Below the pieces are notes generated by a model. It was not told where the DNA came from and searched no databases. It saw only the letters and a list, made by a program, of their open reading frames with translations. Shown here one piece after another: positions 1 through 59,689 of a DNA stretch of 64,000 nt (position 1 is the stretch's first letter; every line of letters starts with the position of its first letter). The DNA comes from Heptranchias perlo (taxonomy: Eukaryota): NCBI RefSeq assembly GCF_035084215.1, contig NC_090336.1, positions 22,444,001 through 22,508,000 of the forward strand. Direction: 5' to 3'. A program made the translations under genes and the position numbers.

Positions 1-899
1 AATAAGTGTCATGGGGCCCTTTATATCCATCTTATCAGGCAGATGGGGCCACAACTCAACATTTCAAAAAGATGGCATTTTTGACAATGCAGTTGATGTG
101 TGGCAGTCAGCTAAGATTATGTCCTTAAATCCTAGAGAAAGACTTGAATCCATAACTAGACTTAGGTGAAGCAATGGGGCTCTCAGGTGAAAGGGATAAA
201 AGTGAACTATCTGCTTAAGATGTTTGCATCAGAAGCAATTGGATTAAGTGGATATTGCAAGAGCTTGGGCTACAACAGCCATCATCAACCCAAGATATGA
301 TGAAAGTCTCCTGTCTGTTAGGATCCCAAATCAACATGTTTGGAGCAATCTCAATCCAGTTTCTCATGGACATAGCATGAAATTGTCCCCAATAGCAATT
401 AGTCTGCAGCTTGGCTATGGGAAATTTCATTAATGCAGTAAGTAGTGCTCATCCAAAGTTAGAGCCAATGAATCTTTAAATTTCATTTTTAAAAAGTAGA
501 AAAAGCTTGACTTTGCATCTAACCAAGAACTCCTTGAAGACCACACTGGTATCCAGAAGTGTTCCATTCTGCACCATCCTTTAACAGCAAAAGATTTAAG
601 TTTCAAAAAGATTCAACCTGGTAGGAGAACTGGAGCCACTAGAATTGAAACCCCATTTCCACTTTTATGCTGTATTGCTGCAATTCACTCAAGTGGCACA
701 ACAGTATTTAGTCCCAGTGATGTGATTTAACCATGAGAGTTACCATCTGTTCACAACTAGCAAGTAAATGAACCTGCCCTACCAATATGCATCTAAAACA
801 TACTTCAGTATGACAGGTTGAACTGCATTTCAAACACAAACTTATTTTGTTAACACTGAAACTACACAAGCTTTGCTCTAAGAGTTTCCTATCTCAGCT

Positions 900-5240: not shown

Positions 5241-5274
5241 TCCCTCCTGGAGGAGCCCTTGTCATTTTAAAGAG

Positions 5275-5429
5275 GACAAGGGCTGAGGAAGGAGGCAAAC
5301 ATTTGCCTGAGGAAGGAGGAAATCTCCGAAAGCTTGTGAATTTAAAATAAAATTGCTGGACTATAACTTGGTGTTGTAAAATTGTTTACAATTGTCAACC
5401 CCAGTCCATCACCGGCATCTCCACATCAT
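5275..5429 (+). mobile_element. Short non-coding Penelope-like (pseudo-LTR) fragment carrying a hammerhead motif
   Basis: 5301-5393 is nearly identical to the 3' end of the GIY-YIG element (15395-15487) and is flanked by a TCATTTTAAAGAG direct repeat (5262-5274 and 5426-5438). Confidence 0.8.
5301..5341 (+). ncRNA. Minimal type-I hammerhead ribozyme motif (copy 1)
   Basis: ATTTGC-CTGAGGA-A-GGAGG aaa TCTCC-GAAA-GC-TT-GTGAAT: CUGANGA/GAAA core, stem II, palindromic AGCU stem III, stem I AUUUGC/GUGAAU. Confidence 0.72.
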
Positions 5430-5784
5430 TTTAAAGAGAATCGACCCCTAAAGGATTCCTGAAACTGAAACTTGTTAATATTTTAGTTTCTACCCCATCT
5501 CCCATGGGGATACTGTACTGGTGGTAAGGAAGAGGTTCTAAATGGTGATTTTTTTTTAAAAGAGGCACTGTCACCATAAGACACAGATCCTTGGAGGCAG
5601 ATAATTATGTTCACAAACAAAATTATGAGGTCTGGTTCAGATTTTAGAAATTTCCTGGCACTTTACTCAAAATCTGGACTGTCCAGGTTAAATTAGGAGA
5701 GTTGGCAAGTGTACTTCTTCTGCCCCTCCATCACATCTGGAAATGGTATCAAACTTAGATTTTTACTGTTAAATTTTTAAGTGT

Positions 5785-6160
5785 CAGCCGAGCTCAGCGA
5801 TAGCACTCTTGCCCCTATGCCTACAAACCCCCTCATCAGAGACCTAACTCTACAGTTTGGGTTGACACTTCAGTGCAGTACTGAGCAAATGCTGTCTTTT
5901 GGATGAGATATTAAACTGAGGCACTATCTGTCCTCTTAAGTGGATATTTGAAGAAGAGCAGAGGGTTTGTTCTTCTCAACATTTATCTGTCAACCAACAC
6001 CACCAAAATAGATTATCTGGTGATGTGGGACCTTGCTGTGCACGATTTGGCTGCTGCATCTGCCCTCAATGGTGACTACACTTTGAAAGTAGTTCATTGG
6101 CTGTGAAACACTTGGGATGTTTTGGGGACGTGAAAGGTGCTATATAAATGCATGTTCTTC
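5785..6160 (+). mobile_element. tRNA-derived Deu-type SINE
   Basis: tRNA-like head (gctcagcgatagcactcttgcc), Deu core (caccaaaatagattatctgg...gaccttgctgtgcac), tail gaaaggtgctatataaatgca. Confidence 0.65.
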
Positions 6161-6179
6161 CTTTATTTTTATCTTTCCC

Positions 6180-6570
6180 GCAATTCCCTGATCAGGTTTC
6201 CGTCCACAGTACTGAATCGATCCTAACCAAAATAAAAAATGACATCCCCCGTGACTGTGGTGCATTATACAGCCTCAACTTCTCTGTAGCCGTGGATATG
6301 ATTGACCACAGCATTCTCTTCCAACGCCCTCCTCCATTGTCCAGTTGGGTGGTACTGCCCTCACTGGTTTCACTCTTATCCAATAGTAGTTACAGCATCT
6401 CCAAAAATGACTTCCTGCCCTTGCATCTTCAGGGTCCCCTGAGGATATAGCCTTGGACCCCTCCTCTTCTTCATCTATACGCTGCCTCTTGGTGACATCA
6501 TCCACAGACTTGGGGTCAGCTTCCACATGTACACTGATGACATCCAGCTCCACTTCTCCACCACCCACCT
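6180..6570 (+). mobile_element. Decayed L2 LINE RT fragment
   Basis: Translation HSTESILTKIKNDI...AVDMIDHSILFQR and a downstream YTDDIQL-like motif match L2 reverse transcriptase. Confidence 0.6.
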
Positions 6571-6598
6571 TGAACCCTCCACTTGCTCTATGTTGTCA

Positions 6599-6860
6599 TA
6601 CAGACCGGAAGGTTCCAGGTTCAATCCCCAGTCTGCGTTGAGTTAGCTGACCTCAGTTAGGGCACTACAATTGGGCATTCCTGGGCAAGAGAAGTAAGAA
6701 ATCAGTGAGAGTTTTCACTTCTGATTGCTATCTACTGACCTTTGCTGAAAAATCCACATTAAGACAGGTTTGAGTTCAGCTGTGTTGCTGTCCGTCATTG
6801 AATAGCTAGCAGACACTTGCTATCTAGCATCACCCATGAAGACTGGGCACTTGGAGGGGT
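6599..6860 (+). mobile_element. Second tRNA-derived SINE family (representative copy; related decayed copies at about 3700-3970, 27700-28020, 41130-41470, 42640-42980, 49690-49980, 52990-53270, 56990-57420)
   Basis: B-box-like GGTTCAATCCCC followed by agtctg..gagttagctgacctcag; the same motif or its reverse complement (ctgagatcagctaactc...ggatcgaacctggg) recurs throughout the window. Confidence 0.5.
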
Positions 6861-7279
6861 GAAAATTGGGGGGAAATATATTAATGAGTGGGGATAGACC
6901 ATCTCTTAATGTAATGGCTCGCTTACTCTCACTACAGAACAAAAGAGAGCAATGATGAATTCTGGTGTCTAGAACTGAAAGTGCCAGTCAAGCAGGCCAA
7001 CAAATGGAGAAATATCCATAGACGTAGGAAAAAGAAAGGGACCAGGACTTAGAATATATGGTTATTTAATTTCAGTGTAAATGTAGGTTTTATTGGTGGG
7101 AGGGAGTTCAGTGGAGAAAGAGTAAAGCATGTCTTGTGAAAATTAAATCCTTAGCTTGACAATCAGCTTCAATGGCAAAATTGGATGTTGCCAAGCAAAG
7201 TTCAATCAGACCCTTAGAAACTTAGAAAATTTATGGCACACGGAAGGAGGCCATTCAACCCATCATGTCTGTGCCCGTC

Positions 7280-8285
7280 AAAATTTTTTTTATTATTTCG
7301 TGGGATGTGGGTGTCGCTGGCGAGGCCAGCATTTATTGCCCATCCCTAATTGCCCTTGAGAAGGTGGTGGTGAGTCGCTTTCGTGAACGGCTGCAGTCCG
7401 TGTGGTGAAGGTTCTCCCACAGTGCTATTAGGAAGGGAGTTCCAGGATTTTGACCCAGCGACAATGAAGGAACAGTGATATATTTCCAAGTCGGGATGGT
7501 GTGTGACTTGGAGGGGAACGTGCAGGTGGTGTTGTTCCCATGTACCTGCTGCTCTTGTCCTTCTAGTTGGTAGAGGTCGCGGGTTTGGGAGGTACTGTTG
7601 AAGAAGCCTTGGCAAGTTGCTGCAGTGCATCCTGTGGATGGTACACGCTGCAGCCACAGTGCACCAGTGGTGAAGGGAGTGAATGTTTAGGGTGGTGGAT
7701 GGGGTGCCAATCAAGCGGGCTGCTTTGTCCTGGATGGTGTTGAGCTTCTTGAGTGTTGTTGGAGCTGCACTCATCCAGGCAAGTGGAGAGTATTCCATCA
7801 TACTCCTGACTTGTGCCTTGTAGATGGTGGAAAGGCTTTGAGGAGTCAGGAGGTGAGTCACTCGCCGCAGAATACCCAGTCTCTGACCTGCTCTTGTAGC
7901 CACAGTATTTATATGGCTGGTTCAGTTAAGTTTCTGGTCAATGGTGACCCCCAGGATGTTGATGGTGGGGGATTCGGCGATGGTAATGCCGCTGAATGTC
8001 AAGGGGAGGTGGTTAGACTCTCTCTTGTTGGAGATGGTCATTGCCTGGCACTTGTCTGGCACGAATGTTACTTGCCACTTATCAGCCCAAGCCTGGATGT
8101 TGTCCAGGTCTTGCTGCATGCGGACATGGACTGCTTCATTATCTGAGGGGTTGCAAATGGAACTGAACACTGTGCAATCATCAGCGAACATCCCCATTTC
8201 TGACCTTATGATGGAGGGAAGGTCATTGATGAAGCAGCTGAAGATGGTTGGGCTTAGGACACTGCCCTGAGGAACTCCTGCAGAA
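7280..8285 (-). mobile_element. 5'-truncated CR1-clan LINE ('family B'), nested in the 3' UTR of a CR1
   Basis: RT motifs [10 protein letters not shown] and FADD with C-terminal ...HHHLLKGN*. Host CR1 3' end at about 7215-7278 resumes at about 8290. Confidence 0.85.
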
Positions 8286-8289
8286 ATAG

Positions 8290-9050
8290 AGGCAGAAATA
8301 GAGCTACCCAGCCTAATCCCACTTTCCAGCACTTGGTCCGTATCCTTGTAGGTTACGGCACTTCAAGTGCATATCCAGGCACCTTTTAAATGTGATGGGG
8401 GTTTCTGCCTCTACCACCCTTTCAGGCAGTGAGTTCCAGACTCACACCACCCTCTGGGTGAAAAACATTTTCCTCAGCGCCCCTCCAATCCTTCTACCAA
8501 TCATTTTAAATCTATGCCCCCTGGTTATTGACCCCTCTGCTAAGGGAAACAGGTCCTTCCTATCCACTCGATCTAGGCCCCTCATAATTTTATACACCTC
8601 AATCAAATCTCCCCTCAGCCTCCTCTGTTCCAAAGAAAACAATCCCAGTCTATCCAATCTTTCCTCATAGCTAAAATTCTCCAGTCCTGGCAACATCCTC
8701 ATAAATCTCCTCTGTACCCTCTCTAGTGCAATCGCATCTTTCCTGTAATGTGGTGACCAGAACTGTACTCAGTACTCAAACTGTGGCGTAACTAGTATTT
8801 TATACAGCTTGAGCATAATCTCCCTGCTCTTGTATTCTATGCCTTGGCTAATAAAGGAAAGTATTCCATAAGCCTTTTTAACCTCCTTGTCTACCTGTCC
8901 TGCTACCTTCAGCAATCTGTGGACATGCACTCCAAGTTCCCTCTCTTCCCCTACACCTCTCAGTATCCTCCCATTTATTGTGTATTCCCTTGCCTTGTTT
9001 GCCCTCCCCAAATGTATTACCTCACAGTTCTCCAGATTGAATTCCATTGG
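8290..9050 (-). mobile_element. CR1 LINE 3' fragment
   Basis: ORFs 8769-9059 and 8442-8702 (YEERLDRLGLFSLEQRRLRGDLIEVYKI), typical CR1 ORF2 C-terminus. Confidence 0.88.
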
Positions 9051-9069
9051 GCCCATCATGTCTGTGGTG

Positions 9070-9910
9070 GCTCTTTGCTAGAGCAATCCAAGAGCCTTGC
9101 ACTCTCTCCATAGCCTTGTATTTTCCTCTGCTTCAAATATTTATCCAACTTTCCCTTAAAGATTCATTGGTCTCTGCCTCAACCACTCTCTTGTAGCAAA
9201 GCATTTTTCCAACAACACTTTGCACAAAATCTCTCCTAGCCTCTCTCCACACTCCCCAAGTGACAATTTTAAAATGATGATCCCTCATCACTAACTCCTC
9301 AAGAAGAGAAAATAGTCTTTCCCTATTCACCCAATCAAAACCCTTCATAATTTTAAAAGCTTTTATTAAATCTCCTCTAAGTGTTCTCTGCTTCAGTGGA
9401 AATAAGCCCAGTATCTCAAGAGTCTCCTCATAACTATAGTTTCCCATTCCTGGCATTATCCTGCTGAAGAATCTTCATGTATGAGCCTAGACAGTGATTG
9501 TTGACGGGCTATTAAACCGTAGATGAGATCATAGCTAAGTCTAATCATGTCCTCACCAATGTCAACGTATGCATATTCTGACAGGGGTCACTGGATAATG
9601 GTCGGAAATGGGAATCACACCTGATTTTCCCCCCTTCCTGGGCCTGGAATACTGAAGCCAACTGTAGGACTGCAATTGCATAGAATTATATAGAATCTAC
9701 AGCACAGAAACGAGCCATTTGGCCTAACTGGTCTATGCCGGTGTTTATGCTCCACACAAGCCTCCTCCCACCCTTCCATCTAACCCTATCAGCACATCCT
9801 TCTATTCTTTTCTCCCTCACGTACTTATCTAGCTTCCCCTTAAATTCGTCTATGCTGTTTGCCTCAAACACTCTATGTGGTAATGAATTCCACATTCTCA
9901 CCACTCTCTG
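9070..9910 (-). mobile_element. Two further decayed CR1 3' fragments (about 9070-9460 and 9685-9910) with a SINE remnant between
   Basis: LRGDLIKAFKIMKGFD and WNSLPHRVFEANSIDEFKGKLD motifs. Confidence 0.75.
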
Positions 9911-9974
9911 AGTAAATTACCCTCCCTTTTTGACATTCTGTGAATTACTGAACTTTGGCACCTTGGTGAGAATA

Positions 9975-10665
9975 GCTGTCTTTGACATCAGGAATAATTT
10001 GACCCAGTATGGCACCAATGAACCCTAGAAAAATAGATCAGTGAGGGTAAATAAGAAAACCCTCCAGTGGCTGGGGTCAAATCTGACACACTGGAAGATG
10101 GTCATGGTTGTTGGAGGCCAATCATCACAGCCCCATACGTCACTGCCAGAGTTCCTCAGGGCAGCATCCTTGGCTCAACCATCTTCAGTTGTTTAATCAA
10201 TGGTCTTCTCAGTGGGGGTGTTCACTGATGATTCTACAGTGGTCAGCTCTATTTACAACTCTTCCGATAATGGCGCAGCCCATGCCAACCTACAGCAGCG
10301 CCAGGATCCAATATCCAGGTTTGGGCTGACAAGTGGCAGGTAATATTTGTGCCACATAAGTGCCAGACAATGATCATCTCCAACAAGAAAAGGTCCAACC
10401 CCCTCCCCCTGAACCTCAATGGTACCATAATCCCTGAGTTCTCACCAACAACATTCTGGGGCTCGCCATTGACCAAAAAGCTTAACTGGACCATCCATAT
10501 CAACACCGTGGTTACAAGAGCAGGTCAGAGGCTGGCTACTCCGCGATGAGTGGCTCACCTTCTGGCCCCTCAGTACTTTTCCACCACCTACAAGGTTCGT
10601 GTCGGGAGAGCGATGGAATACTCACCACTTACCAGATGGATGTAGGTGCAACAACACTCAAGAAA
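9975..10665 (+). mobile_element. Old, heavily decayed family-B LINE fragment
   Basis: Degenerate parallel of 10900-11610 (KCQTMIISNKKRSNPLPL...NTVVTRAGQRL). Confidence 0.7.
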
Positions 10666-10744
10666 CATAGAATTCCACGTTCCATGTTATGTAGTATTGC
10701 ACGGATCTCATGGGAATTTCCTATTCTTAGCTACTGTAAAATAG

Positions 10745-12035
10745 TGCTATCAAGCGGCACTTACTCACCAATAATCTGCTCACCGATACCAATATTCAGT
10801 TTGGGTTCCGTCAGGACCACTCGGCTCCAGACCTTATTGCAGCTTTGATCCAAACATGGACAAAAGAGCTGAATTCCAGAGGTGAGGTGAGAGTGACTGC
10901 CCTTGACATCAAGGCAGTTTTTAACTGAGTGTGGCACCAAGGAGCCCTAGTTAAATTGAAGTCAATGGGAATCAGGGGGAAAACTCTCCAGTGGCTGGAA
11001 TCATACTTAGCACAAAGGAAGATGGTCGTGGTTGTTGGAGGCCATTCATCTCAGCCCCAGGACATTGATGCAGGAGTTCCTCAGGGCAGTGTCCTAGGCC
11101 CAACCATCTTCAGCTGCTTCATCAATGATCTTCCCTCCATCATAAGGTCAGAAATGGGGATGTTTGCTGATGATTGCACAGTGTTCAGTTCCATTCACAA
11201 CCCCTCAGATAATGAAGCAGTCCGTGCCTGCATGCAGCAAGATCTGGACAACATCCAGGCTTGGGCTGATAAGTGGCAAGTAACATTCGTGCCAGACAAG
11301 TGCCAGGCAATGACCATCTCCCATCAAGAGAGAGTCTAACCACCTCCCCTTGACATTCAACGGCATTACCATTGCCGAATCCTCCACCATCAACATCCTG
11401 GGGGTCACCATTGACCAGAAACTTAACTGGACCAGCCACATAAATACTGTGGCTTCAAGAGCAGGTCAGAGGCTGGGTATTCTGTGGCGAGTGACTCACC
11501 TCCTGACTCCCCAAAGCCTTTCCACCATCTACAAGGCACAAGTCAGGAGTGTGATGGAATACTCTCCACTTGCCTGGATGAGTGCAGCTCCAATAACACT
11601 CAAGAAGCTCGACACCATCTACCACCCTAAACATTCATTCCCTTCACCACCGGCACACCGTGGCTGCAGTGTGTAACATTCACAGGATGTACTGCAGCAA
11701 CTTACCAAGGCTTCTTCGACAGCACCTCCCAAACCCACGACCTCTACCATCTAGAAGGACAAGGGCAGCAGGTACATGGGAACAACACCACCTGCACGTT
11801 CCCCTCCAAATCACACACCATCCCGGCTTGGAAATATATTACCGTTCCTTCATCGTCGCTCGGTCAATATCCTGGAACTCCCTTCCTAACATCACTGTGG
11901 GAGAACCTTCACCACACGGACTGCAGCGGTTCAAGAAGGCAGCTCACCACCACCTTCTCAAGGGCAATTAGGGATGCGCAATAAATGCTAGCCTTGCCAT
12001 CGAAACCCACATCTCATGAACGAATAATAAAAAAA
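10745..12035 (+). mobile_element. 5'-truncated family-B LINE with A-rich tail
   Basis: RT domain (WHQGALVKLKSMGIRG...[10 protein letters not shown]...FADD), frameshifted, ending HHHLLKGN* then gaacgaataataaaaaaa. Confidence 0.88.
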
Positions 12036-14667
12036 ATATGGAGAGGGATAATTGCATTCCCAGCTCCATCTTTTTCTAATTATACCAACAGAAGCCCAAT
12101 TCACCAGCTATGCAAAAAGTCAACCGCGCTGATTGGATCACACTATTACTCCGTTTATATTACAGCATGCTAGCAAAAACAGTTTCTACTTTGATAGCAA
12201 CGCTGTATTATTAATTCAGTAGCACTGCTACCTCTGGAGGTGCAGAGGACCACTTCAGGAGCCTGTTTTCCTCGGCTCCTACAAGAGCAGCAATGCCACT
12301 GGCAGCAAATGTGACCAGCTGTTGCCACCAGTGCTGGTTTCCATCTTTGTTATGTCTGTGGTCAGTTTGACATCGCTGGCCTGTCTGGACCATGCTCAGT
12401 ACCAAGGGAGATTTGTAGCCATAAATTGAAACTCATAATTGCGATTTTTATACAATCCTACATGCCTGTTGTTTCTCTATTGCCACCAGTGTAAACGGAG
12501 CAAACTCCACGGTATGGGATTTCTAGAATATTGTACAACTGCTTGAGTATTTCCGCTTGTGTTTTGTATTTTCAAATCTAATGTAACAAAAAGTTAATCT
12601 ATGTACTGTCACTTTAAATACAAGATGCCAATCACCAACCTGTTTGGGATAGCCAATTTATAAGGTGCTAAACAGCCACTATAACACATCAGATTATGCT
12701 TTCAGATATAAAACTGGTGTCCTTTGCCCATGGTAGAATTGGTTATCGCATTTGAAGCTACGCAAGTCTCTGAAAGCTGTGGACGAGTAAATGCTTGGGT
12801 TACAGCTGAGCAAACAATCAAGTGTCCCTGTCAAAATCCACATAAAAATAATATTTTTTGTATATATATTAGCAGATTTCTGTGATATTACTCTTGGGTA
12901 GTCTAGGATCTGGAGTACAGTCATGATGTTTAGCTGCTATTCTGCCCTACCTCTTTAAAGCCACAACACAAGTCGTTTATGTATGTGAATCCATGCATTC
13001 TAGCTGCTTGAAAATTCCTAGGATCAATTGGAAGTCAGCAAATTGCTTGTGGATTTCAGGCTCCAGGTCACTAACTGGCTTTCTTTCTTTGGTTGTTTTG
13101 CATCAGTAACAAAGTTTGCCATCTGTTGTGTGACACCTGCAGTGTGTTAGTGAACGTGTATTAGACGCAATACTTTTAAATAGCTAGAGGATTTCCCAAG
13201 GCATTGCTTACAGTAAAAAAGATGATATACTCTTTTATAGAGACAGGTGTTTTAAACCATGTAATGCACAATGTATTATTCTGCTAAGGTGACACTAAGT
13301 TCCCTGAAGGCAACAATGTGTAACTGTTGTTAAGTTAACACAAGCTGAAGCCACTCAGAGTTTAATTGTCCTTTAGTCAGGAAGATTTGCAAAGTATAAA
13401 GTGTTTGTCAGTTTCAACTCCAGGTCAAAAGCACTCAGCATCCAACAATTGGGCTTTTTATCTCATTTTTAAGATTATTTTGCATCTGTAAAAAAGTGAA
13501 AACATTAGGAGTGTGGAACATGATGTCCAGAGTGTGACATCTGGCATGTGCTGACATATTGTTTTTATATTATTAGATAACGTTCCATGGTACTGCTCAT
13601 GATAAGATAGAGAATGCACTATTTTGTAAAGACAGAAACATTATACCATTTTAAACACAATGGATTATTCTGCTGATGTGTCACTACATATTTCTTTAAA
13701 GCTACACAGAGTAATTGTTGTGTATTGTTGAAGTGTATGCTTAGCTTGCTTACAAGTCACGCTGCAGAACTTTGACTTTGTTTGTTGGAAGCCGCAGACA
13801 TTTTGGCTCCAGAATTAAATGTGATTTATAAATTTGAATTAGGCTGTGTGGCGTCTAGAATGTGACATCTGGAGTCCTGATGTATTATTTTAAAATGTTT
13901 TATAGTTAAATAGATAGATAGATTGATATTGTCATGCTATAATGTGAGTGGCTGGAGTCCAATTCTTGAGGAACAGTCCTTGTCACAGATGGTGCATAAA
14001 TCACAGGCTCAGATGATGAAGTCCGCTCAGTATTGACTCTTGAAACCTGATGTTCTTTTCTCTTTGCTCTCTTCACTTTTCTTTTTCTCAGCCACCTCTG
14101 TTCAACCTCTGTGGCTCCTTGATGTAGCAAAGCCCTTCAGTGTAGCTACATCTTCCCAGCTTGCAGTATTGATGTTAAAAGTTTTCAACTCCCTTTATCA
14201 AACGTCTTTGAATCTGAGTCTAGGTCAACCCAGCAGCGTTGAAACATCTGCAAGTTCTCCATACAAGAGATCTTGGCATGTTAGCTTCCTCAAGTGCTTT
14301 GGTGTCAGGAACTTTATCTTCCTACTTCATACTTAAAATATGGTGACGACAGCGGGTGTGGAAAGAGTTTAGCCTTCTTTCATGCCTGCTGTAGGTGGTC
14401 CAGGTCTCGTTGCCATACAGCAGCGTGCTCAGGACGCACATTTGGTAGTCTCGTATCTTGATGCTCAATAGTAATTTCCTATTAATCCACATATGCTTAG
14501 TCAATTGGCCAAATGTGGTTGCTGCCTTTCCAATGCAAGAATTTAGCTTGTCATCTAGAGATAAGTTATCCAACACAGCTGATCCTAGGTAGCAGAACTT
14601 GATTACAACTTCTTGCGTGGTTTTAGCTATTGAAACTTCTGGTGCCATGATCACTGTCTTCTTTAGG

Positions 14668-15485
14668 ACAGCGTCCACGACGCCACACAACCCTGCCACG
14701 GTAACCTCTGCAAGACATGCCAGATCATCGACACAGATACCACCATCACACGAGATGACACCACCCACCAGGTGCATGGTTCATACTCCTGTGACTCGGC
14801 CAACGTTGTCTACCTCATACGTTGCAGGAAAGGATGCCCCAGAGCATGGTACATTGGCGAGACCATGCAGACGCTGCGACAACGGATGAACGGACACCGC
14901 GCAACAATCGCCAAACAGGAGGGTTCCCTCCCAGTCGGGGAACACTTCAGCAGTCATGGACATTCATCCACCGACCTTCGGGTAAGCGTACTCCAAGGCG
15001 GCCTTCGAGACACACGACAACGCAAAATCGTCGAGCAGAAATTGATAGCCAAGTTCCGCACCCATGAGGACGGCCTCAACCGGGATCTTGGGTTCATGTC
15101 ACGCTACACGTTACCCCACCAGCGAACAAATATTATCTGTTTTTAATATAATGGGTCATTTGCTGGCTCTCTCTGCCTTCCGGATGTTTCTGCCTCTCTC
15201 TGTGTTTTTTTTCTCTCTGTTGTTTTTTTCCCTGTTTGTTTTTTTGTTGAATGTGTATTCGGGGGTTCTGCAGATGACACCTCTCTGTCTGAACACGGTG
15301 ATTGCCTTGGCAACGGGCAGTTGCAGGGGCAGTCTGTAAACACCATGTATTATTCAATATGTATAAATGCGTAGGCTTCAAGGAGATCCTGAACATTTAC
15401 CTGAGGAAGGAGAAAATCTCCGAAAGCTTGTGAATTTAAAATAAAATTGCTGGACTATAACTTGGTGTTGTAAAATTGTTTACAA
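14668..15485 (+). mobile_element. 5'-truncated Penelope-like retroelement encoding a GIY-YIG endonuclease, with 3' hammerhead motif
   Basis: ORF 14772-15146 NVVYLIRC...YIGET...LRQRMNGH...VGEHF...GLN is a PLE GIY-YIG signature. Flanked by 9-bp duplication TTCTTTAGG (14659-14667 and 15486-15494). Confidence 0.9.
15395..15435 (+). ncRNA. Minimal type-I hammerhead ribozyme motif (copy 2, within the PLE)
   Basis: ATTTAC-CTGAGGA-A-GGAGA aaa TCTCC-GAAA-GC-TT-GTGAAT; predicted cleavage 3' of U15429. Confidence 0.78.
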
Positions 15486-15624
15486 TTCTTTAGGCTGATG
15501 GTTAATCCAAATCCATTGCAAGCCAGTGAAAAGCATTCTTAAAGGGCAGAGGAGAATGCATTCTTAAAGGCTACCATCTCATATCTACCACAAAAAAAAC
15601 TGCATCTGAATTCTACAACAATAT

Positions 15625-18240
15625 GTCGAGGAACCAACTAGGGAACAGGCTATTTTAGATCTAGTATTGTGCAATGAGACAGGGTTAATTAGTAATCTTA
15701 TAGTAATTCAACAACCAATAACTGTAAAACCTCCTGTCTTGTCTTTATTAAACAAAGTCTTGCTTCCCATGAAGCAATATCTATATTTTGCTCTCTCCCC
15801 CCACCCCAAAATTTTTTTAAAGAATCGCTTCTAAAATTCCCTTGAGTAACAATCGCCACGCGATTTTATTTCAGTTACAGAATGCCACGAATGTGAAACT
15901 TTATTGTTCAAACCAACAATAAAAAAAGCAACAAAAACAGAAATATCAGTTAACAGAAAATTCCAGTCATTTCCACCCTGCCCTGTAAGATAGAATTTCA
16001 TATTGAGTTTGAAAGTGATGTAGTTAAGTCTGAAATTAGGGTCTTAAATTTAAACAAAGCCAATAACATAGGTATGAGGGGCGAGTTGGCTAAGGTAGAT
16101 TGGGAAATTAGATTAAAAGATATGACGGTCGATTAGCAATGGTGAACATTTAAAGAAATAATTCATAATTCTCAACGAATATACATTCCCTTGAGGAGTA
16201 AAAACTCCATGGGAAAAGTGGTCCAACCGTGGCTAACTGGAGAAGTTAAGGATAATATTAGATTAAAAGAAGAGGCTTACAAAGTTGCCAAAAAGAGTAG
16301 TAGTCCTGAGGATTGGGAGGGTTTTAGAAATCAGCAAAGGATGTCCAAGAAACTGATAAAGAGGGAGAAAACAGAATATGAGAGTAAACTAGCAAGAAAT
16401 ACAAAAACAGATTGTAAGAGCTTCTACAAGTATGTAAAAAGGAAGAGAGTAGCGAAAGTGAACGTGGGTCCCTTAGAGGCAGAGACAGGAGAAATTATAA
16501 TGGGGAATAAGGAAATGGCAGAGATGTTAAACAAATATTTTGTACCTATCTTCACAGTAGAAGACACAAAAAACATTCCGGAAAGAGTGGGGAACCAAGG
16601 GTCTAATGAGAGTGAGGAACTTAAAATAATTAATATTAGTAAAGAAAAAGTACAAGAGAAATTATTGGGACTAAAAGCCAACAAATCCCCTGGACCAGAT
16701 GGCCGACATCCTAGGGTTTTAAAAGAGGTGGCTGCAGAGATAGTGGATGCATTGGTTTTGATCTTCCAGAATTCCCTAGATTCTAGAACGGTCCCTGTAG
16801 ATTGGAAGGTAGCAAATGTAATCCCGCTATTTAAGAAAGGAGAGAGAAAGAGAACAGGGAACTATAGGCCAGTTAGCCTGACATCAGTGGTAGGGAAAAT
16901 GCTAGAATCTATTATTAAGGACGTGGTAAAAGGGCAGTTAGAAAATCATAATGTGATTAGAATCAACACAGTTTTATGAAAGGGAAATTGTGTTTGACAA
17001 ATCTACTAGCGATTTTGAGAGTGAAACTAGCAGGGTAGATAAGGGGGAACCAGTGGATGTAGCATAGTTGGATTTTCAAAAGGCATTCGATAAGGTGTTA
17101 CACAAGATTAGGGCTCATGGGATTGGGGGTAATATATTAGCATGGATTGAGAATTGGTTAACGGACAGAAAACAGAGAGTAGGAATAAACGGGTCATTTT
17201 CGGGTTGGCAGCTTGTAACTAGTGGGGTGCCATAAGGATCAGTGCTTGGGCCTCAGCTGTTTACAATCTATATTAATGACTTAGATGAAGGGACTGAGTG
17301 TAATGTATCCAAGTTTGCTGATAATATAAAGCTAGGTGGGAAAGTAAGTTGGAGGAGGATGCAAAGAGGCTACAAAGGGATATAGACAGTTAAGTGATTG
17401 GGCAAGAAGGTGGTAGATGGAGTATAACGTGGGGAAATGTGAAATTATCCACTTTGGTAGGAAGAATAGAAAAACAGAATATTTTTTAAAAGGTAAGAGA
17501 CAAGTAAATGTTGGTATTCAGAGGGATTTGTGTGACCTTGTACACGAATCACAGAAAGTTAACATGCAGGTACAGCAAGCAATTAGGAAAGCAAATGGTA
17601 TGTTCACCTTTATTGGAAGGGGGTTGGAGTATAAGAGTAAGGAAGTCTTGCTTCAATTATATAGGGCTCTGGTGAGACCTCACCTGGAGTACTGTGTACA
17701 GTTTTGGACACCTTACCTAAGGAAGAATATGCTTGCCTTAGAGGGGGTGCAACAAAGGTTCACTAGATTGTTTCCTGGGATGAGAGGGTTATCCTATGAG
17801 GAGAGATTGAGTGGAACAGGCCTGAGTAGAATTTAGAGGAATGAGAGGTGATCTCATTGAATTGTATAAAATTCTTAGAGGGCTTAGCAGGGTTGATGCT
17901 GAGAGGCTGTTTTCACCTGGCGGGAGAGTCTAGAACTAGGGGGCATAGTCTCAGGATAAGGGATCAGCCATTTAGGGCTGAGATGAGGAAAAATTTCTTC
18001 ACTCAGAGGGTCGTGAATGTTTGGAGTTCTCTACCCCAGAGGGATGTGGATGCTCAGACATTGAGTATATTCAAAACTGAGATCAATAGATTTTTGGACG
18101 TGAAGGGAATTAAGGGATATGGGGATAGGGCAGGAAAGTGGAGTTGTGGTAGATCATCAGCAGTGATCCTATTGAATGGTGGAGCAGGCTCGAGGGGCCG
18201 TATGGCCTACTCCTGCTCCTAGTTCTTATGTTCTTATGAA
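15625..18240 (+). mobile_element. CR1 LINE (ORF2 partial, multiple stops and frameshifts; about 285-bp foreign insert at 15706-15988)
   Basis: [27 protein letters not shown] and YCVQFW motifs; 3' tail ttcttatgttcttatg. Confidence 0.9.
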
Positions 18241-18859
18241 ATCTCCTGACAAAAAAATGCCAATTCTCATTAAGCCTGTTCCACCACATTTAAATGAGGT
18301 CAAGGGGTCCGCCCATTCCCCACCACTTTTGCCCCAAACCCACTCCAAATAATTGCAGTCATTATATCAGCGTAGGTAATAGTTGTTTCAAGATGTCCCT
18401 GAAGTGAATACTGTATTGAGGAGGCCATTTGTGGTGGCTGCTTCCGAAGGCTGGTTTTTTCTGGCCTGCATAGTGTTTTATCCTCCTTAATGTAAAATAT
18501 TTGAAATGTATTCCTGTAGGTAAGTAGTGCTATAGGAATGCAAGTTTTTGTTGTCTATCCAGTTTGGCGAGGTACCAAAGGATGGATGGAGCCAATTAAA
18601 ACCCGCGCAATAATCAGCACCTTCAGGAGAGAAGAGAAAGTTGGGAGATAAAGGGAACAAAAAATTAAACAGTGCTGCATTTCCCTACATTGACTCCCAC
18701 ATTAACAAGAGATCATTTAAACTCTCCAAACATATGATTACACTAAAACGGTTGATGCAGACCGACTTGCTGTGGTTGGATAATGCTTCGAGAGTTGGTT
18801 AGCTTCATGAATGATAGTGTTGTGAAAGAATTGCTGCTGTCAGTGTCCCTTTAAATTCC

Positions 18860-19047
18860 CACGGTGACGATGGGAAGACCTCCCCGCCGACAGGTGGCGC
18901 TGCGTTGGAAGAGTAACGGGGCGCTGGGGGGGGGGCGGGGCTCGGCTCCTGGGCGGTTTGCGCATGCTCAGAAGCCTCGGCGTCGTGTCCCGCTCTCGAT
19001 GGAAGTGTCGCTGCAGTTCAGCCTCAATTTGCGGTCTGGTGGACGGG
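18860..19047 (+). promoter_or_regulatory. ARMC7 CpG-island promoter and first exon
   Basis: CTCF-like CCGACAGGTGGCGC about 18888-18901, GC box GGGGCGGGGC about 18932, NRF1-like GCGCATGCTC about 18960, donor GGG|GTGAGT after 19047. Confidence 0.7.
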
Positions 19048-20395
19048 GTGAGTCATCAGCTTCAGGTTCATACTTAGCGGCTTCTTCCCTGGGTCAGGTC
19101 TCCTGTGATACCCCCAGGGCCAAGGCCTCGCCTGATGTTCCTCAAAGAGGCCGGAGAGGAGTCGGTGCCCCGCGGCGAACTGATGGAGGTGGTGCGGCGG
19201 CTGCTTTATTGCCGACTGCAGCTGGGCTGAGCTTCGTTAGATTCCCCCCCCCCACCACACCACTGAATGAAGCAGAGGTGTGTCAAATAGTTACCTTCAT
19301 ATCAGGCAACAAGTTTACAATCAAAACATATTTACCTGTGAAAAATGCGGTATCCCTGCCAGCACTTCCACTCAAATGACAATTCCTAGCTGCGCCTCAG
19401 GAATGGAGGGACTTTTTAATGATTTGAAAGATAACGGGATTTCCTATGTCACAGAAAGGTAGTCGATTATTCACAAGTTTTATGGGGGGAGTGTTTTGAG
19501 AGAACAGGAGGCGAGTCTCACGGTGGAGGTGGGGGAGATGTGGGAGAATTCATTGTAATATGGGTTCAGGACTGGGATGGGAGTGAGGAGGAGATGGCGG
19601 CTGCATGAATAGTATTGCTCTGAGAAACAGATTGGACCATAAGCTCCTTGCACTTGGTGGTCGTCAAAGGCAAAGCTAAGGGAACTGTTGACAAAGTAAA
19701 CAGTGGAATTGTGGATGGCCAAAGATGGAGCTGGGGATTTGAAAGAGTATTGATAAAGGAGCTGGAATTATGTTTTTTTTTTCAGGAAAAGTGGTGAGGG
19801 TATTGCAAGGGAAGATGGACAGAGAAGGGGATGAGGTACTGATTGGGAGATGGCCCTGTCAGCGATTGGAGATGGTGAAGCCTCGGGTGACTATGGATGG
19901 GAAAGTTTATGTTCAGGGTGAAGTTAAACTTTGAGGACCCACAAATCAGTTGAGAAGGGGCTAGGAGAAAGCATTAGAGGAGTATGGGAGAGGGCCCCTA
20001 GGTGGGACTTGGTGATGACAGCTGCTGCACTACCACAGTGATTTAGCAAGTGGCATGGTGGACTGTGGGGCTACTTTAATATGGCTGTAGCTGTACTGAG
20101 CTCTTCGGCCAGCAATGCATAGAAATAGGAATAGGTCAATTGGCCCACTTGCTCTGCCATTTTGTTAGCAATGAAACATAGGAACAGGAGCAGGCCATTC
20201 AGCCACTCAAGCCTGTCCTGCCATTTAATTAGATCATGGCAGCATTTTATCTTTTTAATCCTCTGTCCTTTCTCCGCCTGGAATCTGGCATAGTGGGAAT
20301 CAGGTTATGTCGCACAACTGTTTCCATAATGCAATCTGACTAGGCTTGTGATCAGTATTTCTCTTTTTAATGCAGCTGACTGGAGTTCAGTTGAA

Positions 20396-20498
20396 ATGGC
20401 CAGCTCAGGTCGGGGTATGGAAAGTAAATCCCAGGGGCAAGACCGGTTTGATTACCTGCAAGCCCTTGTTACTGAGTTCCAGGATACTGACAGTCAAG
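20396..20498 (+). CDS. ARMC7: Armadillo repeat-containing protein 7, coding exon 1
   Basis: MASSGRGMESKSQGQDRFDYLQALVTEFQDTDSQ; YLQALVTEFQ matches the ARMC7 N-terminus. Acceptor tgcag| at 20375, donor |GTAGG, phase 1. Confidence 0.92.
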
Positions 20499-20929
20499 GT
20501 AGGATGACCAAAAACGTAAGATGGTGATCTATGATTATCGGTCACAATCCGGGATTGGAACTATAGGATTCCAAGTAGTAAATGTTCTGAAAAGAACAGT
20601 CATGGGGATGTTTGGGAGTGAGGCGCAGATGCCATGAAAACCAATTTTTTTGGTTGTGCTCATGATTCTGTCCACGCAAAGTTGCCACTATCTTAAAGTT
20701 TATGGTGTTTAGTATTTTCTTAATCTATTGTTTATTGGTGCATTTATTGCAGCACTTCACAGGTTAGGCTTTACTGGGCATACATCACTGAAGTTGGCTT
20801 TTGCATGATGTGCATTCTGTCATAAATATGATAGTTATTGGGCCTGATGAGCACAATGACTGTGCCAGTGCAGGTCCTGTACAGTCGAGTTTGTATGAAA
20901 GCTAACATTGTTTTGTTCTAACTTCTCAG

Positions 20930-21073
20930 AGTCAAAGGAGCAAGTTCTGGCAAACCTGGCTAACTTTGCCTATGATCCCAGTAACTATCAGTATCTTCGA
21001 CAGCTGCAGGTCATTGACCTATTCCTGGATATGCTCACAGAAGATAATGAAAGATTTGTAGAATTTGGAATAG
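20930..21073 (+). CDS. ARMC7: ARMC7 coding exon 2
   Basis: (E)[47 protein letters not shown]; 144 nt, ctcag| and |GTAAAG. Confidence 0.95.
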
Positions 21074-21969
21074 GTAAAGACTAATTTTTATATTTTGTGT
21101 TTTGTCACCTCCCTGCATGTTGAGTAATCTGGATCATCCAGGCTGTGGTCTATTCTGGGCCTCTTGTCAGAAGCAATCAGTAGGAAATGACTAGATTGCT
21201 TTTTCAATACCTTTTTTTAAGGAAATATGACAGAAATTTATAGATTGAAAAAGTGCAATATCAGAAATGTTGGCAGTAACATCTCAAGATTTTTTTATAT
21301 TTATCTATTTATCTGATTTTCTGGATTCTGGAACATGGTTGTGATGTTTAACTGCTAATCTGGCCTGTCCCTTTAGGCCCCAAACTCAGGTACTCCCGAG
21401 AGGAAAGTGGTTTATGTCGATCTAGAGGTTAATTATTGCTAATGAGAGAATTTTGCAGATAGCAAGGTGCTTGTAACTTTCCAGGTCAATCTGCAAAAAT
21501 TCCTCACCATTAGGTATTAATCTGCAATTGACTTAAATGTAAAATAATTGCCTTTCTTTTTGCTTTGAGCACTCTGAAGTGTGATGGATGCTCTTCAGAC
21601 CATCTCAAAACTTTTATATGGATAATGGATTTCCTCATGAGGAGTCAGGGATATGTGTTGATGCTGTGTAATGTACCAGTATATTAGCGTCATTAGGATT
21701 TTTCAAATTCCAAAGGGTTATGGGAGTGATAGTATTTTCAGGTTGAGATTATGTCATTGTGTCCACATTTTTGTAGCAATTATAAATCAAAGCCCTTTTT
21801 ATTCGTGTGTTAAATGGGAAGGGAACTGTATGAACATTAAAAGTAAAATTAATGTTTATTGTTGGTGCTAATTCATCATATCCTCACCTGTAATTCTTGT
21901 ATATTAGCCCCTTCTCACAGTATTTATTTTTCATGGACCCAGTGCTGACGGTGTTTTTATTTCCTACAG

Positions 21970-22307
21970 GTGGTCTCTGTAACCTGTGTCTAGACAAACA
22001 GAACAAGGAATATATTTTACAGAACAATGGGGTTCAGGCAGTGCTGGACTGTTTATCCAGCCCTAATGAGGACACGGTACTGTCTGCCATTACCACGTTA
22101 ATGTACCTGATGACTCCTTTGTCACGGGAAGAAATCACAGCAATGCCCGTTATTGAGTGTATGCTACGGTTCTCCATGTCCAAAAACAAACGTCTGAGTA
22201 ACTTAGCGACTCTGTTTCTGGAAGACTTCTGCTCAGCAGAAGATGTGGAAAAAGCCAAGAATTTGCAGAATCACACAGCACTGGGAATACCGCTTCCAAA
22301 AGAATAG
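21970..22307 (+). CDS. ARMC7: ARMC7 coding exon 3 (to stop); joined CDS 585 nt, 194 aa
   Basis: [17 protein letters not shown]...[20 protein letters not shown]...LFLEDFCS...ALGIPLPKE*; ctacag| acceptor; frame continuous across all exons. Confidence 0.95.
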
Positions 22308-23276
22308 GCTCATAGAATTCCACAGCATCCTGATGCTTGTGGGATGGGAACCTCTGGATGTTGTACAGATTCACTAAGTGTGAAGGGACTGCACTACATC
22401 ACTGATATTGCACTTGTGGGTACCTTGCTCCATCTGCTTCACTCAGACTAACTCCAAAGTTTGCAGTATATGGTCCCATTGTGGATACTGCCTCAGTTAC
22501 AGCAATTAAGCTGCACTGTCTTTTAGAGGCAGGTCACAAACTGATTTCTTGTCCCCTGTCCTCCATATGGCATAAAATGCATACAGATATGTAACTATTA
22601 TGGGTTTTTAATGCTGCCCAAGTGCCAGCTTGGTTGAGTTGGTAGCACTCTTGCCTCTGATATAATTTAGGCTGACACTGAGGGAATGCTGCATTGCTGG
22701 AGGTGCTAAAAAGTTGAGTTGGGATGCTTGTAATAGACCTAAAAAGTGGCAATTAAGAATCCTGCACTGTATGGCACGCTAATACGTGTACACAGGTGGA
22801 ACCCACAGCCTGATAAATGCTGGAGGAGTTGCGGAGGAGTCAGTGACCAATTCTAACAAACAATTATATTGTCTATTAGAATAGATTTTATCTGTTGCCT
22901 TTTATTGAAGCCCCAGGATACATAACTAGGTGATAGATGGTAGGCACCTGGTGTTTAACAGTGTTAGGGAGGGGAGGGGAGGGGGGTTATGCAGTCCTGC
23001 AGAATTGAGAGAGGAGTGGTCCTTGGGTTTGTCAGCTGGGGTGGGGTGGGAGGGGGGGGGTCATGTAGTTTGGTAGGAATGATAATAGTTTATATCTCAT
23101 TTTGGCTAAAAAAAAATTCCAAAATTCCGGTTCTGTCCTCCACAGCTGCGTTAATTAAATATTTTCTGTCAAAATATAAACAAAGCCTTTTTAGAAAACG
23201 TTTACCTTAAAAGCTTTCAGCATTGGATTTGTTGGGGGGAACTCAAATAAGTTTACAGCATGTAGAAACTGAGAAA

Positions 23277-23282
23277 AATAAA
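23277..23282 (+). terminator. Candidate ARMC7 polyadenylation signal
   Basis: AATAAA about 1 kb after the stop, followed by T-rich sequence, upstream of the VNTR. Confidence 0.45.
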
Positions 23283-23883
23283 ATTTTAACTAAAATAACA
23301 ATAGTCTTAATTTTAAGTTTCTGTTTTAAGAATAATGGTTTTGAATTGTAGCAAAACACAGATCACGAAGTGTTTCCCGTTGGCTGGTGGCTGCCTAAGA
23401 CTTGCACACTCTCCCTGAACTGTAAATATGCAGTTGATGAGAATCATGAAGCTTTTTCTGGAAAAAAAATCATTCTGCAGCTTATTTTCAAATTACTGAA
23501 AGAAACCTTTTTCAACCAAATGGAGGGAAACCTTAGAACCCCCCCCCCTGCAATGGAGGTCGGACCTCGGGACCAACATGGCCGGTTGCTCCCGGATTAT
23601 GTGGGAGCCCGATGGCACCCGAGAAAATTCGGCCCCACAAATATGTTCTTCGGTACTTCTATCCAATCTTGCTTCAAATACAAGACTATGGATTCAGAGA
23701 AGAAGCAAAACGGGGGGGAAAAAAACACCAAAGGCCTTTCATAGCTCGTGTGTCTCGGTGGGCATAGTGACCGCTCAGTGGTAATTGTACGGTGGGCTGC
23801 TGCTCTTCAATCTCTGTTTTCTGAAGATTTTGGACCAAGCTTGTGTACCCATGTGTCCAATGAAGACTGCTCCGCTCAGCGCG

Positions 23884-24303
23884 CCAGCAGGTGTCGCTGT
23901 GGTAGCAGAATAGCGGGAAAGCGGTGCAATCACCGCTCTTCCACTCCGGCAGGTGTCGCTGTTTTAGCGGGAACGCGGTGCGGCCGCTGTTGCTCTTCCA
24001 CTCCGGCGGGTGTCGCTGTTTTAGCGGGAACGCGGTGCGGCCGCTGTTGCTCTTCCACTCCGGCGGGTGTCGCTGTTTTAGCGGGAACGCGGTGCGGCCG
24101 CTGTTGCTCTTCCACTCCGGCGGGTGTCGCTGTTTTAGCGGGAACGCGGTGCGGCCGCTGTTGCTCTTCCACTCCGGCGGGTGTCGCTGTTTTAGCGGGA
24201 ACGCGGTGCGGCCGCTGTTGCTCTTCCACTCCGGCGGGTGTCGCTGTTTTAGCGGGAACGCGGTGCGGCCGCTGTTGCTCTTCCACTCCGGCAGGTGTCG
24301 CTG
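23884..24303 (+). repeat. 57-bp GC-rich tandem repeat (about 6.5 near-perfect units plus a diverged 5' unit), each with a CTCF-like motif and most with a NotI site
   Basis: Unit CTCTTCCACTCCGGC(G/A)GGTGTCGCTGTTTTAGCGGGAACGCGGTGCGGCCGCTGTTG; motif starts at 23884, 23946, 24003, 24060, 24117, 24174, 24231, 24288. Confidence 0.92.
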
Positions 24304-24319
24304 TGCAGGCGAAGGAGCC

Positions 24320-24435
24320 CGGATGTTGCGGGAGGTTATGCGCATGCTCCGCGACGTCGCGTCCCCGGTTTCCATGAAAGCCGCGGCGGCCTCGATAACC
24401 GCTGGATGGGGAACCGAGTGAACGGCGTTCACCAG
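24320..24435 (+). promoter_or_regulatory. Probable TMEM138 promoter and non-coding first exon
   Basis: CpG island, NRF1-like GCGCATGCTC about 24340, palindrome GCGACGTCGC, X-box-like GTTTCCATGAAAGC about 24368-24381, donor CAG|GTGAGC after 24435. No other CpG island is visible before the TMEM138 ATG. Confidence 0.65.
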
Positions 24436-25141
24436 GTGAGCAATCACTTTGAATTCTCCTTTAAACAGTGGGACTGGCTCCTACCCCGGACCTGTGGACA
24501 GCTCCACCTCACCTCACCAAACAAAACCATCGCTTGTTGGAAGTTCTGCATCGGACGGTGAGGCTCAGGAGGTGAAACCTGGGGATGGAGAAGGAAACCG
24601 GCCGGACTCGGTTGTGTTTAGGGGATGGGGATGGGTCGGTGCCGAGTGTGGGGACCCCAGGATTAGTGTGGGGACCCTTCCCGTTCTTAGTTTACATTCA
24701 CAGGACGATTATTGACGAGGAGGGCCATTCGACCCATCTTAATTTATCCATTCAGAGATCTCCTATCATCACGACTGATGTTCCTCAGATAATTCCAGAG
24801 CCCTTGCTCCCACTTCTCTCGCTGAAAGTTTACTCTACATAATGATCACTTTGTGTAAAGGCTTTCCTGCTAAAAGTACCCGTCTCTAGTTTGAACCTGT
24901 GTCCATTAATTCTACTCTTGTTTGTTTAATTTCAAATAATATTATGGGTTAACTTTTTCTATACTTTTAACAATTTTATAGACCTCTAATAAAATTACCT
25001 CTCGGTCGCTTCCTTTGCAGGCTGGAAAGCCGAAGTTTCTCCACTTTTTGCTCATAAGCCAGACACTCCCGGTACTGCCTCCGGGGAGGACTGGCATATT
25101 TCTCTTGTTTCTTTATGATCGGAACTAGGTGTAGTATTCCT

Positions 25142-25252
25142 CCTGACGAAGGAGGAAGCCTCCGAAAGCTTGTGATTTCAAATAAAGCTGTTTGACTATA
25201 ACCTGGTGTTGTAAGACTCCACCCCAGTCCATCACCGGCATCTCCACATCAT
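25142..25252 (+). mobile_element. Short Penelope-like fragment with hammerhead core (copy 3, divergent subfamily), inserted in an old minus-strand CR1
   Basis: CTGACGA-A-GGAGG aag CCTCC-GAAA-GCTT-GTGA...ACCCCAGTCCATCACCGGCATCTCCACATCAT; same 3' end as copy 1; 5' strand of stem I lost. Confidence 0.75.
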
Positions 25253-26974
25253 GGTCTAATTAGAGCACTATAAGGTTTGGTCATTACCTTCTCTGACTTA
25301 TTCTACTGTTTTAGCCATGTAGTTCAATGTCCTATTAGCTTTGTTGATTGCTGTTCTGCATTGGATATGTTTAGTGTTGAGTATATTAAGGCTCCTAGGT
25401 CTCTTTCAACTTAATACTTAGCTATTTCAACACCATTCTTAGAGTGTGTCATCTATTTTTTTCTTCCTACTTGTAGCAATTTACATTTGTTGACATTAAA
25501 TCTTATCTGCTATCTTTCTGACCATTTTCATATCTTGTTCAACTCATTCTGTAATTTTGAAGGATGGAGGAAATGATTGGTGAAGAGTTGTTGTTCTGAC
25601 TACAGGAATGATCTTAAGTAGATTTGGCCATGAAGTGAGAATGACAGTACTGCTTGAGGTGGTTAGGCCAGATCTGGAAATGGACAAGGTTGATTTCTTC
25701 CTACGTGCTTCCAAGCTTCTGGCCCAAGGAGATGAGGCAATGGAGGTGGCTGTTGTAGCAGGGTTGGGAGTGGAAAAACATCTGGTGGAGACAATGGTGT
25801 CAATTATAGAGGTGAGACAGTTGTGCATTAGATGATAAAAGATGTTGATTTTATTGTGGGTGGTAGGCCAGGGAATGGGAGGTTGGAACTTTTGAGGACC
25901 CTTGTGAGGGAGTTGGGAAGTGATTTTTTTCCCAGGGTTGGTAGGTGAGAATGGAGTGGAGGGGTGAGCATGGGATGTGTATTAAAATGATGAGGAAATG
26001 ATTAAAGGGAGTTTGGAGGGTGATTGGCCATGAAACCTTTAAGTCTATGTGTTGTGTTAAAGTTGAGGGGAGACCTTGTGTCTGGGTGATTGAATAATAA
26101 TAATGGGTTGGGTTGGCAGTGCAGTGCTACAGTTGGTCTTGACTCCTGGTTGGCAAGGTTCAGATTTCCTGCTTCTGGTCACTAAACAGTGACTCCTGCT
26201 TCTGGGGTGTGTGTGTGTGTGCACGCATTCTGACATTCTATTGTTCTGTGAGGATAGGATTGGGCTTGTTCGCATATGAAAATCAAATAACCTACTGGGG
26301 TTCACTGCTAGGCTCACATATGATGAATGGCCACTTGGGTGAGGTACCGAAAGGCTGATGGTGTCCATGGAACTGTAGCCCAGCAGGAGTCAGCATCTTG
26401 AGGGGAAAAAAATGGAAACAAACAGTAATAGGTTTAACCTGTGCTACAGGGAATTGAGGATAGCTGCAGTTTGCAGGCTTGGAGACGATATGCAGTCTCC
26501 CAGTCAGTTCGGCTGCCTGCCTCCGTGGTGAACAAGAGGAGGTTCCACAGTATTAATTCTTTGTGACTACATTTGAGCAATGGTAGTTTGGGCTGCAGGA
26601 AAGGAACTATTTGCAGTGACAGCAGAGAGCAGTGTGGCATTCAATGTTAAAAACCAACCACTCCAGTTGAGTGACTCTTTCTTGTGCCTTCTATTAGAGT
26701 GAGTGAAAGGCCAAGATGTACTTACAAGAAGATGTTCCTAATCCCATAAGTACTGTCTGCATAATTAAAGTACCATATTAATCTGCTTTGTACATACCCT
26801 TTATGTAATCTGTAGTACCAATGGCAGTGGGGGGAAATAAACAGAAATGACTGAAACTTTTTAAAAAATTAGAAATCTAGTTCCATGCAGACTAACACAC
26901 AGGCTGGAGTGCATTACAAGGTAGTAAGATATTAAAGAATAAATCATGACCTTAAGGCTTATGTGGTTTATCAA

Positions 26975-59490: not shown

Positions 59491-59589
59491 CGGGTCCGAC
59501 TCCGCTAAGTATGGTTTTAAAAATGTGACCTGTGTCGATGGGAGGCCGCTGTGAAACAGCCCGGCGTCTTCAAACAGGCGAAAAATCCA

Positions 59590-59668
59590 TCGCTCGAGCA
59601 CCCGGCCCGGGGCCCGTCACCAGGAAGTGACGGAGAGACGCTGGAAACCGTTGTTGTGGTGACGCAAA
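59590..59668 (+). promoter_or_regulatory. CpG-island promoter of the next gene (probably TMEM216)
   Basis: CCGTCAC-CAGGAA-GTGACGG inverted repeat containing ETS GGAAGT and CRE half sites (59614-59633); X-box-like GTTGTTGTGGTGAC 59650-59663; YY1-like AAAATGGCG overlapping the ATG. Confidence 0.65.
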
Positions 59669-59678: not shown

Positions 59679-59689
59679 GTGAGTGAGGG

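Follow-up and report, generated by a model that had tools for sequence, protein, structure and literature searches.

The 64,000-nucleotide stretch of Heptranchias perlo DNA analyzed here (contig NC_090336.1, positions 22,444,001 to 22,508,000; hereafter the window) carries three plus-strand copies of a minimal hammerhead ribozyme motif, and the question it raises is whether these represent a coding parent with two short, independently mobilized derivatives, as proposed in a first-pass annotation made from the sequence alone. There is neither a parent nor a separate mini-family among the three copies; all are separate, scattered insertions of an abundant Penelope-like element (PLE), a young, ordinary and very active one with intact open reading frames (ORFs). 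The family, its ribozyme, its tail and its inverted arms are of kinds already known. The short copies are likely to be dead-end run-off cDNAs, resembling "strong-stop" products, of this endonuclease-bearing element.

The motif CTGA(G/C)GA-A-stem II-GAAA-GCTT-GTGA was re-found at positions 5307, 15401 and 25143, with G-U, A-U and G-C as the loop-closing pairs of stem II across the three copies, a 6-bp stem I in copies 1 and 2, and predicted cut sites after 5335, 15429 and 25171; core, stems I and II and a palindromic stem III together make up a minimal type-I hammerhead. A loose core pattern matched the window 10 times, which is not above chance (6.95 +/- 2.93 in shuffles), and an Rfam scan of the window found no hammerhead; its MIR7533 match is spurious, with a long inverted repeat as its source. 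Because the core pattern alone is at chance and Rfam is silent, the reality of the three motifs follows from homology (copy-to-copy identity of 98% over 96 nt and 80% over 124 nt) and family membership. The 3' terminus shared by copies 1 and 3, ...CCACATCAT, is the start of an ORF, which reads on as ATG ACT ACC ATC at four loci (L030, L058, L104 and L106), and the same terminus is found in long endonuclease-bearing copies (L005, L018, L022, L024, L026 and L029). The earlier reading was correct in assigning these motifs to the minimal hammerheads of PLEs and in holding that the 3' end is defined by sequence and that the ends are not random. Element positions below are numbered from the A of the ORF ATG as +1 (window 5428), which places core base C3 at -121 and the predicted cut between -93 and -92.

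The family and its long and short copies

A search of the genome with a 31-nt tail pattern gave 33,959 exact matches, and intact 902-aa ORFs are present at loci L104 and L106, in a 3,082-bp unit. The protein comprises a reverse transcriptase (RT) domain (RVT_1, E 3e-10), a Cys-rich linker and a GIY-YIG end; Pfam does not report the latter for the full 902-aa protein and gives it only on the piece encoded by copy 2 (PF01541, E 4e-4, narrowly missing the curated cut-off). The linker before the endonuclease, C-HGNL-C-KT-C, has the Zn-finger-like form CX2-5CxxC, a feature of endonuclease-bearing (EN+) PLEs of the Neptune/Nematis type (PMC8557442; here and below, statements from cited papers refer to the accessible parts of their text). 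Partial tandems, an inverted 5' arm and an optional tail are also present, and the family, judged by ORF and structural features rather than by a tree, appears to fit the Neptune/Nematis type. The tail and the inverted pseudo-long terminal repeat (pLTR) of PLEs have been described before (PMC3846280, PMC8557442), and two RT start sites found in vitro account for both (PMC11167929).

The ends were scored in 95 unique copies sampled in order of position (of the first 100 matches listed, 99 were retrieved, and four duplicates were then dropped), with the loci chosen by likeness to the window copies (L001-L030 and L061-L090) excluded from end and haplotype counts. At the 3' side, 66 of the 95 copies end at -1..+3, 6 continue into a tandem unit, and 13 run 4-11 nt into the ORF, implying that the template of these 13 carried the ORF start. 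Inverted arms end at -33..-38 in 44 of 66 cases, and 79 of 82 head-to-head pairs bear the tail on exactly one arm. Target duplications of at least 8 nt were found for 64 of 88 copies compared to 4 of 85 controls, with a mode of 12 nt (35/88). Subfamily B, to which copy 3 belongs, has coding copies of its own; its pattern has 4,913 genome matches, and its long copies encode a protein mostly 86-93% identical to that of subfamily A (7 of 13 loci tested).

A search for variant tails returned only 54 scattered matches and no divergent family. One rare tail variant, with 14 matches at 17-31 kb spacing on one strand (G000:C3:86281317-86610856), probably belongs to a large tandem segmental array. Contigs of three other organisms match the tail region of L104 (L104:4560-4860), the matches ending near the same boundary at the ATG, and related families are therefore probably widespread. 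Locus L104 itself (G000:C1:4433948-4442100) is a near-full-length head-to-head pair, one intact unit of which starts at -148 and, as this point lies past the TATA box, has no upstream promoter of its own.

The first-pass annotation had taken the short copies for an independently mobilized, ribozyme-only family, akin to retrozymes or to short interspersed nuclear elements (SINEs), which would rely on PLE protein in trans. Several observations agree with this idea: short arms outnumber long ones (177 versus 69 in a haplotype set of 246 arms, enriched by pattern searches), both ends are defined, one junction (GGCAAACATTTGCC) is found again at many loci, pLTRs are the source of animal retrozymes (bioRxiv 10.64898/2026.07.22.740005), and non-autonomous PLEs exist in Chlamydomonas (PMC8557442). 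However, no short-only haplotype has expanded, the largest accounting for 3 of the 246 arms, and the five commonest haplotypes occur in long and short arms alike. Insertion junctions vary, and the sole recurrent one arises on different subfamily backgrounds (L001, L091, L109). The 13 of 95 copies whose 3' ends enter the ORF also speak against a separate family, as does the first set of 100 listed tail matches, among which there were no same-strand neighbors within 1 kb and no short head-to-tail units. Finally, the short copies have lost the TATA box, and a lone hammerhead with a zero-loop stem III would be unable to excise a monomer. With long coding copies sharing the identical 3' end and with no enrichment of ends at the cut site (see below), the proposal is unsupported, and we consider it very improbable.

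Where the short copies begin

The alternative envisaged in the annotation, copies with random ends as plain truncation products, did not hold for the 5' ends: 55 of the 95 sampled copies have their start at -111..-160, the interval -161..-180 contains no start at all, and of the remainder 27 extend further upstream and 13 are shorter. In long copies a TATA-like box precedes the core by 36-47 nt, depending on the subfamily, and the 5' boundary of the short copies (hereafter stubs) moves with this box across three subfamilies, sharply in two. In subfamily A2, with the box 46 nt before the core, 63 arms had not been classed as long beforehand, and 41 of them start at TATA+29..31, the others starting at +32..35 (10), at +27 (3) or at +9..21 (7), or being long (2); the boundary reads TCATTT, which we take to be initiator-like. 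In subfamily B (box 36 nt before the core), 25 of 33 arms start at about +29..36, four arms having been reclassed as long by eye. In subfamily A1 (39-40 nt) the mode is +30 (5 of 29 arms), where copy 1 also starts. Nested genome-wide counts for A2 fall from 12,100 (+36) to 7,837 (+30), 4,123 (+26) and 3,124 (+22), and are steepest from +30 to +26, where 47% are lost over four bases spanning the predicted start. A splice acceptor as the 5' boundary was ruled out, as there is no AG at the A2 boundary and no common upstream exon.

Some points weigh against reading these boundaries as RNA 5' ends. We infer the start at TATA+29..31 from DNA ends and motifs, and the tracking involves three subfamilies, with samples drawn from the first 30 Mb of one contig. 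In A1, the subfamily of copies 1 and 2, 12 of 29 arms are scattered between TATA-3 and +27, and the A2 counts still drop by 24% from +26 to +22, partly via sequence variants. The A2 search pattern leaves out ends 3' of +36, and the arm finder drops arms cut inside the core. An untemplated cap-derived G was not evident by eye at A2 junctions. The Penelope element of Drosophila virilis, whose transcripts start inside the upstream pLTR, uses a TATA-less internal promoter (PMC2377424), so the promoter type would differ from that of the shark family. We found no description of stubs bounded by a transcription start in the accessible literature, and the supplementary coverage plots of PMC11167929 could bear on this point.

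The pile-up could instead mark the place where trimming and microhomology joining are easiest, within AT-rich, partly palindromic sequence before the ribozyme. Junctions do use short microhomologies (e.g., AAATTT, AAA/TTT), and the scattered A1 ends would suit this explanation. On the other hand, few ends fall around the TATA box or downstream of the cut site, where the sequence is equally AT-rich and palindromic, the interval -161..-180 is empty (0/95), and single-arm copies on unrelated flanks begin at the same A2 base, all of which makes trimming an unlikely cause of the boundary.

Nor does the ribozyme appear to set the boundary, whether by self-cleavage or through a fold or dimer stalling the enzyme. 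Ends do lie near the 5' edge of the hammerhead (0-6 nt from the core in subfamily B), and stems I and II keep pairing in 92-94% of cells (92.4% and 93.9%); of the stem covariation that the annotation had asked for, one real two-sided change was found, in stem II. Genome-wide, 166 ends fall exactly at the ribozyme cut versus 234 two bases upstream, values that become about 138 and 140 after removal of point mutants (a correction based on 30 loci each, with truncations scored by script in 23/30 and 17/30 and by eye in 25/30 and 18/30). There is no surplus of ends at the cut, a stall would be expected on the 3' side of the fold and not beyond it, and the offset from the core varies by subfamily (17, 10 and 4-6 nt) in step with the TATA box, leaving a ribozyme-made boundary highly doubtful. 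The lack of enrichment at the cut site implies that cleaved linear RNA is not a notable template. The template used in insertion is likely uncleaved by the ribozyme, in agreement with the lizard element PAc, in which ribozyme mutants leave insertion unaffected (PMC11167929). Folding of the dimer was uninformative, the minimum-energy structure being without the hammerhead fold. A second, unrelated repeat with a minimal hammerhead and a different tail was seen on the minus strand of L040 near 799, and is probably from another PLE family.

The three copies in the window

All features of the three copies are on the plus strand. Copy 1, which the annotation had started at 5275, proved to extend from 5297 to 5429; its left edge falls on the transcription start predicted for subfamily A1 (TATA+30) and its right edge on the end of the tail, at the ATG. 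The preceding 5275..5296 is junction filler, composed of the reverse complement of flank 5256-5263, an 11-nt element piece and GGC, which matches a head-to-head junction of the PLE family. A 13-nt target-site duplication (TCATTTTAAAGAG) lies at 5262..5274 and is repeated at 5426-5438. The hammerhead (5301..5341, core from 5307, predicted cut after 5335) comprises stem I (5301-5306/5336-5341), stem II (5315-5327) and the palindrome AAGCTT, and 3' of it is an AATAAA (5346..5351), a possible polyadenylation signal present in 23 of 23 aligned long copies. A hairpin at 5374..5391 has its 3' base at the -35 end of tail-less arms, and one of its pairs is changed on both sides (A-U in 12 and G-C in 8 of 23 long copies). 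The PLE tail, known to lie between two reverse-transcription start sites (PMC11167929), occupies 5394..5429. A possible but unproven H-type pseudoknot spans it (5357..5415; 5357-5362 with 5403-5408, and 5368-5373 with 5410-5415), its stems being nearly invariant (98.6% and 100% of cells paired), with no two-sided change.

Copy 2 does have the GIY-YIG frame for which it had been named the parent, but it is a 5'-truncated insertion, 820 bp long, that has neither RT nor tail and is flanked by a 9-nt target duplication of its own (TTCTTTAGG; 14659..14667, repeated at 15486-15494); it is a tail-less sibling primed at the second site. It contains the 3' end of the ORF, with the Zn-finger-like linker and the GIY-YIG endonuclease (14668..15146), a TATAAA box of the pLTR 39 nt before the hammerhead core (15362..15367), conserved in position in long copies and a putative promoter element, and the hammerhead (core 15401) followed by a 3' end at -35 (15395..15487).

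Copy 3 (25143..25254) is a short subfamily-B insertion running from C3 to ATGG, and has a 12-nt deletion in common with L062 and with L063, a coding copy. Truncation of its 5' end at C3 accounts for the missing stem I, which its long relatives retain. In place of the 5' strand of stem I stands TTCCTC (25137..25142), likely a remnant of an inverted junction, as TTCCTC also precedes the core at inverted junctions in L075, L076, L082, L087 and L088. No clear target duplication was found for copy 3.

Elsewhere in the window, an inverted repeat of about 610 bp (44722-45332, 85% identity), resembling a long interspersed nuclear element, is the origin of the MIR7533 match, and tandem repeat arrays at 23884-24304 and 59520-64000 yield long open frames.

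Proposed route of insertion and known systems

The reading of the stubs as run-off cDNAs can be laid out as a series of steps. RNA polymerase II would start about 30 nt past the pLTR TATA box, 4-17 nt before the hammerhead core. The protein presumably nicks both target strands about 12 nt apart, in line with the duplications observed, and the observed ends suggest priming at about +2 or at -35; two-site initiation has been demonstrated in vitro for the lizard element, where ORF-side RNA was needed (PMC11167929). To judge from the junctions, a cDNA extended as far as the RNA 5' end would then be attached to the target or, in head-to-head orientation, to another cDNA, with microhomology and some trimming involved. 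One primed nick would give a single stub or tail-less arm, and two a head-to-head pair. As the first tail-ORF junction would be only about 130 nt from the RNA 5' end, synthesis primed there would run off quickly; long copies would have to use the downstream pLTR-ORF junction of an RNA read through a tandem, or else jump to the 3' pLTR. Stubs, devoid of the TATA box and of ORF-side sequence, are likely unable to move again.

Both arms are identical over 70 nt in 59 of 82 head-to-head pairs (21 of the 82 come from the loci chosen by likeness to the window copies), and 13 pairs differ at family-level variants, 5 of these at the G/C position 7. At least some insertions were therefore probably made from two templates, or from two pLTRs on a single transcript, with later gene conversion as a possible alternative source of the differences. 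Examples of differing arms are found at L113, L083, L125, L215 and L216. Hybrid pLTRs in L137:+3415 and L118, A2-type before the core with an A1-type stem II, are a hint of template switching between subfamilies.

A more speculative extension, which we regard as possible although rather doubtful, treats the pLTR as a U3-R-U5 unit. Target-primed strong-stop cDNA would be made from the 5' pLTR up to the TATA-driven start, full-length and tandem copies would arise by strand transfer to the 3' pLTR via the repeat from the start to AATAAA, stubs would be failed transfers, and a dimeric protein could prime two RNAs at two nicks. If true, this would supply a missing mechanism for pLTR regeneration, for which there has been no obvious one beyond tandem formation (PMC2377424). 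In a family this young, with ORFs still intact and pLTRs that can be told apart by subfamily, strand transfer and tandem read-through can be tested directly against each other. Should the stub ends correspond to the RNA 5' end, these fossils, numbering in the tens of thousands, would map the promoter and show uncleaved RNA to be the main template in vivo. Repeat annotators would misname such stubs as SINEs or retrozymes.

Like the EN+ PLEs Neptune and Nematis, which carry a pLTR, an inverted pLTR and a 30-40 bp tail (PMC8557442, PMC3846280), the shark family has one RT and GIY-YIG ORF with a Cys-rich linker, partial tandems, an inverted tail-less 5' arm, target duplications and a pLTR hammerhead; as far as the accessible accounts of those elements go, it differs in its majority class of about 130-nt stubs with a boundary that follows the TATA box. 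PAc, a Poseidon element of Anolis carolinensis, has RT starts on either side of the tail, extends both strands and uses an uncleaved RNA template (PMC11167929), features that the shark family appears to share. In PAc, however, the hammerhead contains the start of the ORF, and RT initiates within the ORF, at 111-118 nt (PMC11167929), whereas in the shark family the ribozyme precedes the ATG by 121 nt and the start codon marks the end of the tail. The minimal hammerheads of metazoan PLEs have a similar extra base before stem II and palindromic positions after GAAA, and are also mostly single copies or opposite-strand pairs, which Cervera and de la Pena read as truncated PLEs (PMC4209133). A cleaved or circular RNA template was proposed there, whereas the stub ends here bear no trace of cleavage, although none would be expected from a religated circle. 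Animal non-LTR retrozymes are likewise non-coding, pLTR-derived and equipped with a type-I hammerhead, but their definition requires tandem units that carry two or more hammerheads (bioRxiv 10.64898/2026.07.22.740005), unlike the shark copies, which lie dispersed, singly or head-to-head, and have target duplications of their own.

Minus-strand strong-stop DNA of LTR retroelements is primed near the RNA 5' end and runs off at the transcription start. The shark stubs would be made in the same manner, primed near the RNA 5' end with run-off at the transcription start, but from nicked target DNA instead of a transfer RNA, and would be integrated as such.

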